Part shown: piece after piece, positions 7,064 through 7,132 of the stretch
Position numbering within the stretch: the stretch's first letter is position 1
Layout: each line of letters starts with the position of its first letter
IMG/VR virus record: IMGVR_UViG_2534681988_000034
Length of the DNA: 8,554 nt
Direction: 5' to 3' (one strand)
Source: a virus
Taxonomy: Duplodnaviria; Heunggongvirae; Uroviricota; Caudoviricetes
Position numbers and translations under genes: made by a program
Notes under the pieces: model-generated
What the model saw: only the letters and a program-made list of their open reading frames with translations
Told to the model about the DNA's origin: nothing
The model's database searches: none

Positions 7064-7075
7064 ATTTCCATTTCA

Positions 7076-7088
7076 CGCTCTTTAACAA
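7076..7088 (+). promoter_or_regulatory. boxA-like antitermination element (CGCTCTTTAACAA)
   Basis: Sequence CGCTCTTTAACAA located 13 nt downstream of the cro stop, the canonical nutR position. It matches the rrn-type boxA consensus (GCTCTTTAACAA) and resembles lambda boxA (CGCTCTTA). No convincing boxB hairpin follows. Confidence 0.4.
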
Positions 7089-7132
7089 TAAGCAATCAAC
7101 TTAACAGTCAATTCAAACTAAAGGAGTCAATT

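Follow-up and report, generated by a model that had tools for sequence, protein, structure and literature searches.

A consensus boxA between cro and a cII-like gene of an Escherichia coli prophage is probably an orphan remnant of a nutR-type site

This locus raises the question of what a boxA of the ribosomal type is doing between cro and the next gene of a lambdoid prophage, in the position of nutR, where neither a boxB hairpin nor an N gene accompanies it. The initial annotation saw here an unusual arrangement in which boxA alone would recruit NusB/NusE, as in rrn antitermination. The window (we use the word for the whole stretch of 8,554 nucleotides that was analysed, IMG/VR record IMGVR_UViG_2534681988_000034) is the early region of a lambdoid E. 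coli prophage. Its minus strand carries int (1..1164) with an excisionase-like ORF, a leftward operon with exo (2641..3321), bet (3318..4103) and gam (4109..4405), a KilR-family ORF (kilR, 4481..4771; PHROG 294), two moron ORFs between cI and PL (5238..5681 and 5694..5957) and, in the immunity region, cI (6039..6728). The moron products are a 147-aa membrane or coiled-coil protein (PHROG 3556, with weak hemolysin-like matches) and an 87-aa protein (PHROG 4231); both ORFs are absent from phage PhiR34_1, and other cargo is found instead in IdasGreatGrand and in L174, a prophage contig described below. On the plus strand, cro (6833..7063) encodes a 76-aa YdaS-type HTH protein (PF15943) that matches the PHROG 35 repressor family (E = 1.5e-27) and whose homologue is annotated as Cro in PhiR34_1. 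It is followed by a cII-like, YdaT-domain gene (7133..7672; 179 aa; PHROG 163, CII-like activator, E = 5e-67), the product of which bears the RefSeq name "toxin YdaT domain-containing protein", and, 3' of this, by an O-like gene from 7669.

We placed PR by the sequence TTGACT (6777-6782) and the operator palindrome at 6770-6794. PL is predicted on the minus strand from TTGACG (4993-4988) and TTAAAT (4970-4965), with a leader of ~190 nt running into kilR (promoter and leader together, 4772..4993). The PR operator is a perfect 25-bp palindrome (ATGGTTGTTGACTAAAAACAACCAT, 6770..6794) that overlaps the -35 element; a related AACAAC/GTTGTT motif lies at PL (4993..5010), and the two promoters have the same operator type, which also occurs in Klebsiella phage ST101-KPC2phi6.1 and in the relative L235. 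Within the PL operon, strong intrinsic terminators occur at 2580..2558(-) and 1985..1967(-); transcripts from PL may therefore require some form of antitermination if they are to extend into xis/int. No convincing intrinsic terminator was found on the plus strand within 8 kb downstream of boxA.

The exact 13-mer CGCTCTTTAACAA (7076..7088, plus strand) has a single exact copy in the window, starting 13 nt past the cro stop codon and 45 nt ahead of the ATG of the cII-like gene. Its core, GCTCTTTAACA (7077-7087), is a perfect fit to GYTCTTTAANA, the functional consensus for boxA in the γ-proteobacteria (PMC5725501). The boxA sequences of lambda nutR (CGCTCTTACACA) and nutL (CGCTCTTAAAAA) do not fit it, which upholds the initial annotation in placing the 13-mer closer to the consensus than lambda boxA. 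Compared with the rrn boxA, TGCTCTTTAACAA, it is identical at 12 of 13 positions. The untranslated cro-cII spacer around it (7064..7132, 69 nt, with 6 G and 15 C) would correspond to about +255 to +320 of the inferred PR transcript, and it is unstructured: the minimum free energy of -3.6 kcal/mol (z = -0.76) was equalled by 44 of 200 shuffles, so the reported lack of a boxB stands. No Rfam family was detected in the spacer, and a scan of the whole window (E <= 1) returned two spurious miRNA matches only. If transcribed from PR as predicted, boxA would lie in accessible, untranslated RNA between the cro stop and the cII start. The C/G ratio is 2.2-2.5 (about 2.3) across 7030-7150, a rut-like composition. 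In the minimum free energy fold the boxA core pairs weakly, over 7 bp, with the Shine-Dalgarno sequence of the cII-like gene (AAAGGAG, with GGAG at 7123-7126 and ATG at 7133; together 7120..7135), no better than in shuffled sequences.

We then asked what the left side of the phage offers as partners for this element. No window ORF matches the N family, although a lambda N fragment used as a control does match, and N is annotated in none of PhiR34_1, IdasGreatGrand and 4A7; the annotations of PhiR34_1, PhiR5_1 and IdasGreatGrand list Q and lack N. That no N gene is to be seen was thus borne out beyond the window. Many E. coli genomes have the module at 100% identity, and it is 99.1-99.6% identical in PhiR34_1, PhiR5_1 and IdasGreatGrand, whose recorded hosts are E. 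coli K-12, E. coli C and E. coli, respectively. In PhiR34_1, a complete phage of 44,626 bp that is 99.6% identical, the boxA consensus occurs once in all, after cro. The suggested search of the leftward leader and the rest of the prophage for a further copy therefore showed the 13-mer to be unique in the window, and its consensus unique in PhiR34_1, and yielded no copy on the left. The PL leader (4772-4966) contains no boxA-like match and hence no nutL. Nor does it contain a detectable put: an nhmmer profile built from HK022 putL/putR and L235, which does recover HK022, HK639, L182 and L235, finds nothing in the window, and a put-like element in the leader that we had suspected by eye was dropped as unsupported by this search. 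Taken as a whole, the leader (4772..4966, minus strand) gave no put-like, nut-like or Rfam match, and its folding (z = -1.04) does not reach significance. It is 93-99% conserved across immunity types (4A7, Perceval and the PhiR phages) and starts at a mosaic joint at ~4958. Since boxB, N and nutL are all missing, the element cannot work as an N-utilisation site, and with no boxB and N found nearby it is not an ordinary working nutR.

Two further features of the left side were considered. The lambda-nutL-like string CGCTCTTAACCAA (5182-5170, minus strand, 2 mismatches) was rejected as a nutL, since it lies ~180 nt upstream of the inferred PL -35; it falls near the end of the transcript of cI and the morons, with the intrinsic terminator at 5163-5140(-) following directly, ~0.2 such matches are expected by chance, and it is probably a chance match. 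The string lies 9 nt before this strong terminator (CCCGGCcaccgtGCCGGG followed by TTTTCTTTTG; the two features together span 5140..5182 on the minus strand). The PL leader also contains a 20-codon ORF with an arginine-rich motif, KRTRERR (MKRTRERRCDQLKSTQHFIP; 4858..4796, minus strand; ribosome-binding site and start GGGGAG-N8-ATG). In most relatives its start codon is GTG, and in ~40% of 92 relatives its TAG stop is CAG, giving an in-frame fusion to KilR.

For comparison we used 27 loci from species-representative genomes of other Enterobacterales species, with Cro homologues 53-86% identical to that of the window. Fifteen of these have a boxA (<=2 mismatches) 6-23 nt past the cro stop, and in all 15 a stem-loop follows it, for example UCCCUGAAAUUGGGA, GCCCUGAUUCGAGGGC, GCCCUCGGAACUCCAGGGC or UAUGCCGCGAGGUGUA. 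At least 10 of the 27 loci have a second boxA with a similar stem-loop on the opposite strand, 1-2 kb to the left; the ten with such a leftward pair are nine of the 15 boxA loci plus L223, whose post-cro boxA has 3 mismatches. In one locus, L220, the nutR and nutL stems differ by compensatory changes around one common loop. ORFs just downstream of the leftward nutL sites start with arginine-rich motifs (MNRNQRRMAEYNARKAA, MSAKQRCKSRRKNRR and GNAKTRRHERRRKLAIER), the last of which is presumably the arginine-rich motif of P22 gp24. It follows that, in the window's Cro family, a post-cro boxA as a rule forms the leading half of a canonical N-dependent nutR. The same loci also confirm, together with the coordinates, the nutR position claimed for the element. 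The initial annotation had treated an rrn-like boxA as an oddity in a lambdoid early right operon, a view that is not sustained, as most relatives of the window Cro carry boxA of the CGCTCTTTAACA type in canonical nutR/nutL pairs.

The relatives also indicate how the hairpin was lost. A 14-mer scan of IMG/VR returned mostly unrelated or chance contexts, its useful finds being L107/L174, L096/L121 and L182. The closest relatives, the prophage contigs L174 and L107, match the window at 96% identity over the region of cI, cro, cII and O, and in L174 the N-less PL leader and kilR are those of the window too. In both contigs the spacer reads CAACTTAACAG, then 12 extra bases, ACTGATTAACAG, and then TCAATTC; the window does not have the 12. 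The extra bases create the hairpin GACUG-AUUAA-CAGUC, and the L174/L107 form folds at -8.3 kcal/mol (z = -2.09), compared with -3.6 kcal/mol for the window. At the scar (7101..7109, plus strand) the window has a single TTAACAG (7101-7107) where these relatives have TTAACAG-ACTGA-TTAACAG, and of the lost hairpin the 3' arm remains, as CAGTC (7105-7109). Outgroups, namely L235 (Cro 84% identical), L121, L096 and L236-L238, have GGCUGA-(AUUA/GGAA/GAAA)-UCAGCC ~19 nt past boxA. The presence of a homologous hairpin at the same position in outgroups indicates that the hairpin is ancestral; the window form arose by loss of 12 bp between two direct repeats of TTAACAG. Alignment A2 shows an invariant boxA block next to an upstream flank that is not conserved, and the second stem pair has changed from G-C to A-U on both sides, which is one compensatory pair. 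From its position we infer that the GGCUGA...UCAGCC or GACUG...CAGUC hairpin is boxB. No nutL partner bearing GGCTGAATTATCAGCC was found: 13 of the 13 boxA-linked copies in IMG/VR lie in the nutR position before a YdaT-type cII. Among 5426 complete E. coli genomes the deleted form (>=99% identity) is present in 1471 and the hairpin form in 45.

The surroundings of the spacer are mosaic. The matching region in 4A7, Perceval, D2, 1W, 3W and others starts precisely with the ATG of cII, which sets a mosaic joint at 7132/7133; these phages have the PL leader in common with the window from ~4958 leftwards, and a different immunity region. In 4A7, Perceval and D2, which have the window's PL leader, cII and O, the cro-cII spacer is 30 nt long and has no boxA. 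HK639, with a phi80-type cII and its own putL leader, similarly has a 30-nt cro-cII spacer and no boxA, and phi80 itself, whose cII is 68% identical to that of the window, is likewise built with a short spacer lacking boxA. The boxA, with or without its hairpin, is combined with three kinds of left side: with true put RNAs in L235, L433, L445, L294, L303 and L182 (the leader of L235 and the annotated HK639 putL share 92.7% identity), with a phi80-type nutL in L121, L441, L438, L427 and L236-L238, and with the window-type leader in L174. Among put-bearing N-less IMG/VR loci with at least 3 kb of the immunity side, a rightward boxA consensus is present in 3 of 50. The boxA is intact in all the N-less contexts seen and near-identical to copies in phages with a phi80-type nutL. 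The simplest account is that the boxA(+hairpin) unit has been shuffled with the cro/cII junction and stranded in phages without a matching N. As a side observation, L235 (1860..1928(-) and 4248..4294(+)), L433, L445, L294, L303 and L182 have putL on the left and boxA-hairpin after cro, with no putR, and we know of no description of such a put-left/boxA-right combination.

We consider it probable that the 13-mer is what remains of a nutR, now orphaned, and that any effect it has through Nus factors is incidental at most, descent and recombination accounting for it better than a dedicated rrn-type design. The boxA would be half of a nutR-type site travelling with a mosaic cro-side module, the hairpin half having been removed by the 12-bp deletion in a lineage whose left operon lacks N and nutL. 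Because boxA fits the consensus perfectly and sits in RNA that is neither structured nor translated, NusB-NusE probably still associate with the PR transcript there and, in turn, bring in NusA, NusG and SuhB. Some protection from Rho over the spacer, and at most that, is plausible given that it is untranslated, unstructured and G-poor, and the phage does not appear to depend on boxA. The arrangement that the initial annotation had offered as a design is thus better read as history: the hairpin was deleted, and sister phages that have the PL leader, cII and O in common with it are viable although they lack boxA. The lack of a convincing plus-strand intrinsic terminator over the next 8 kb also speaks against a required role. 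A counterpoint to the remnant reading is that a perfect boxA has been kept in the window type and in L174, L235/L433, L445, L294, L303 and L182. Retention of boxA in the window while the hairpin was lost is also what would be expected if boxA had an N-independent role. Intact boxA in N-less contexts fits function and recent exchange equally well, the latter because the same sequences occur in phages with a phi80-type nutL.

Such an N-independent role could be that of an early-right antitermination signal in its own right, and we regard it as possible, if rather doubtful, that NusB/NusE assemble on boxA alone a complex of the rrn or CRISPR-leader type (NusA, NusG, SuhB). On the same reading PR transcription might, with similarly limited likelihood, be made Rho-resistant all the way to Q, across the spacer and the long nin region with its many morons. 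Besides the perfect GYTCTTTAANA match in an unstructured, untranslated, G-poor setting, the binding data are in its favour: rrn-type boxA is a far better NusB:NusE ligand than lambda boxA, with a Kd of ~8 nM for NusB:NusE, and the binding of NusB on its own is ~17-fold better for rrn boxA than for the boxA of lambda nutL (PMC2800207). The rrn operons and CRISPR leaders are established cases of antitermination by boxA alone (PMC7665894), and a consensus boxA can recruit the Nus complex without a phage factor at suhB (PMC5725501) and in CRISPR leaders (PMC7665894). Moreover, boxA is intact in at least 5 sequence-distinct N-less contexts where the hairpin appears dispensable, six having put at PL and none at PR, and N-less phages with cro-cII spacers of 69-200 nt have boxA, whereas those with 30-nt spacers do not. 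However, the boxA-less sisters are viable, boxA is rare at the put-type loci, identical elements in phages with a phi80-type nutL allow recent recombination to explain the N-less cases, and the left operon, where the strong intrinsic terminators are, has no second copy. The 72 IMG/VR copies and 6 phage genomes of this lineage are virtually identical in the spacer, so conservation within the lineage has no power as a test and says nothing on selection. A variant that we hold to be about equally tentative is a split early antitermination, in which the left side would rely on an RNA element (put or the PL leader) and the right side on a boxA served by host factors only, the loss of the hairpin then being streamlining.

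Other readings have much less to recommend them than descent from a nutR-type site. A regulatory use as at suhB, in which a Nus complex on boxA, 45 nt upstream of the start, would occlude the Shine-Dalgarno sequence of the cII-like gene, seems very improbable, and so does its further element, that lowered translation would allow Rho-dependent attenuation and tune the levels of the CII-like protein, O and P. The boxA does fall inside the 50-nt window that defines suhB-like targets (PMC5725501), its core is complementary to the Shine-Dalgarno sequence, the spacer has rut-like composition, and in the lambda annotation rutA covers boxA itself; but the pairing is weak and no better than in shuffles, the same boxA serves canonical nut sites in relatives, and the published list of boxA-associated genes omits the cro-cII locus even for a carrier of the prophage, O26:H11 11368. 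We think it similarly far-fetched that the 20-codon ORF in the PL leader, the leader hairpin and the post-cro boxA(+hairpin) site form a cryptic N-like system. Its attractions are the arginine-rich motif preceded by a ribosome-binding site, several substitutions that are synonymous, a start codon that is ATG or GTG in nearly all of the 92 relatives, a leader hairpin, GCU(U)G-AAUUU-CAGC, loosely like GGCUG-AAUUAU-CAGCC, and the presence in L174 of an intact hairpin with an uninterrupted KilR fusion. Against these, the ORF has no match in PHROGs or Pfam, the homologues in databases, KilR proteins of 68-96 aa, do not have the extension, the relatives show loss of the start codon, a +5 frameshift and non-synonymous changes, and in the window both the ORF (by its TAG stop) and the hairpin are disrupted. 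A 20-aa peptide would also lack the NusA- and RNAP-binding parts of lambda N. The mini-ORF (4796..4858, minus strand), a doubtful gene whose substitutions point both ways, could be the remnant of an N gene, or an accident of the GC-rich leader. Finally, the 13-mer can scarcely be a chance string in an AT-rich spacer. While boxA-like strings with up to 3 mismatches are no commoner in the window than in shuffles, simple arithmetic gives an expectation of ~2.5e-4 for the exact 13-mer, and of ~0.03 for the 11-mer GYTCTTTAANA, in 2 x 8554 positions, and boxA is invariant in alignment A2 while its flanks vary. That 15 of the 27 diverged relatives have it at the corresponding position indicates that the match was inherited; the comparative data thus refute a chance origin, and the suspicion that the match might be unconserved in related prophages was not confirmed.

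Set beside known systems, the element is best filed as a degenerate variant of lambdoid nutR, apparently descended from such a site. As in lambda, the P22-type phages and the nut pairs of its Cro family, boxA lies on the PR transcript ahead of cII, 13 nt past the cro stop compared with 8 nt in lambda. Each lambda nut boxA is followed by GCCCTGA(A/G)(A)AAGGGC and the window has no such hairpin; with boxB deleted and nutL and N missing, it fails three of the four features that define a nut system. Its boxA is nearer to the rrn consensus than that of lambda, yet this is the norm among its relatives. Antitermination in the rrn leader (NusA, B, E, G, SuhB, S4) likewise requires no phage protein, but the window boxA lies in an mRNA spacer between translated genes and has neither an upstream boxB-like hairpin nor boxC. 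The suhB 5'UTR (PMC5725501) and CRISPR leaders (PMC7665894) similarly have a stand-alone boxA in untranslated RNA, <50 nt from a start codon; there, however, boxA has been validated by ChIP, mutants and Rho inhibition and is conserved for its role, whereas for the window the comparison with relatives points to a relic of an N-dependent site. The put-type phages HK022 and HK639 are N-less like the window's phage, whose PL leader in contrast has no detectable put; at the nutR position HK022 has putR and HK639 has nothing.

If the element is a relic, it offers a clean and datable case of mosaic exchange stranding half of a bipartite RNA signal, and it would mean that a boxA match in a prophage cannot be taken as a sign that a nut site is functional or that an N gene is present. 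If instead boxA acts alone, host-only antitermination of the rrn type would extend to the early operon of a temperate phage, and nusB, nusE, suhB and bicyclomycin would provide a genetic handle on prophage induction. The module is present in ~1500 of the 5426 complete E. coli genomes (~28%), including O157, O26, O104:H4 and ST131 strains.

We also noted some features of the wider set of sequences. A GC hairpin, GCCGCC-TAA-CC(R)GCGGC, spans the cro stop in phi80, 4A7, HK639, a Klebsiella phage and several prophages (L003 6060..6085; L004 5630..5650; L085 4355..4375; L239 4810..4830; L208-L210), all of its carriers having short, boxA-less cro-cII spacers. In IMG/VR, the same boxA was observed in non-coding DNA of the unrelated contigs L093, L099, L110, L118, L120, L154, L188 and L196, directly preceded by a hairpin (AGCGCCCTATAGGACGCTT-CGCTCTTTAACAATCTGGA), which is the rrn order of hairpin then boxA. 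Other IMG/VR contigs have two copies of boxA in early regions that look T7-like (L089).
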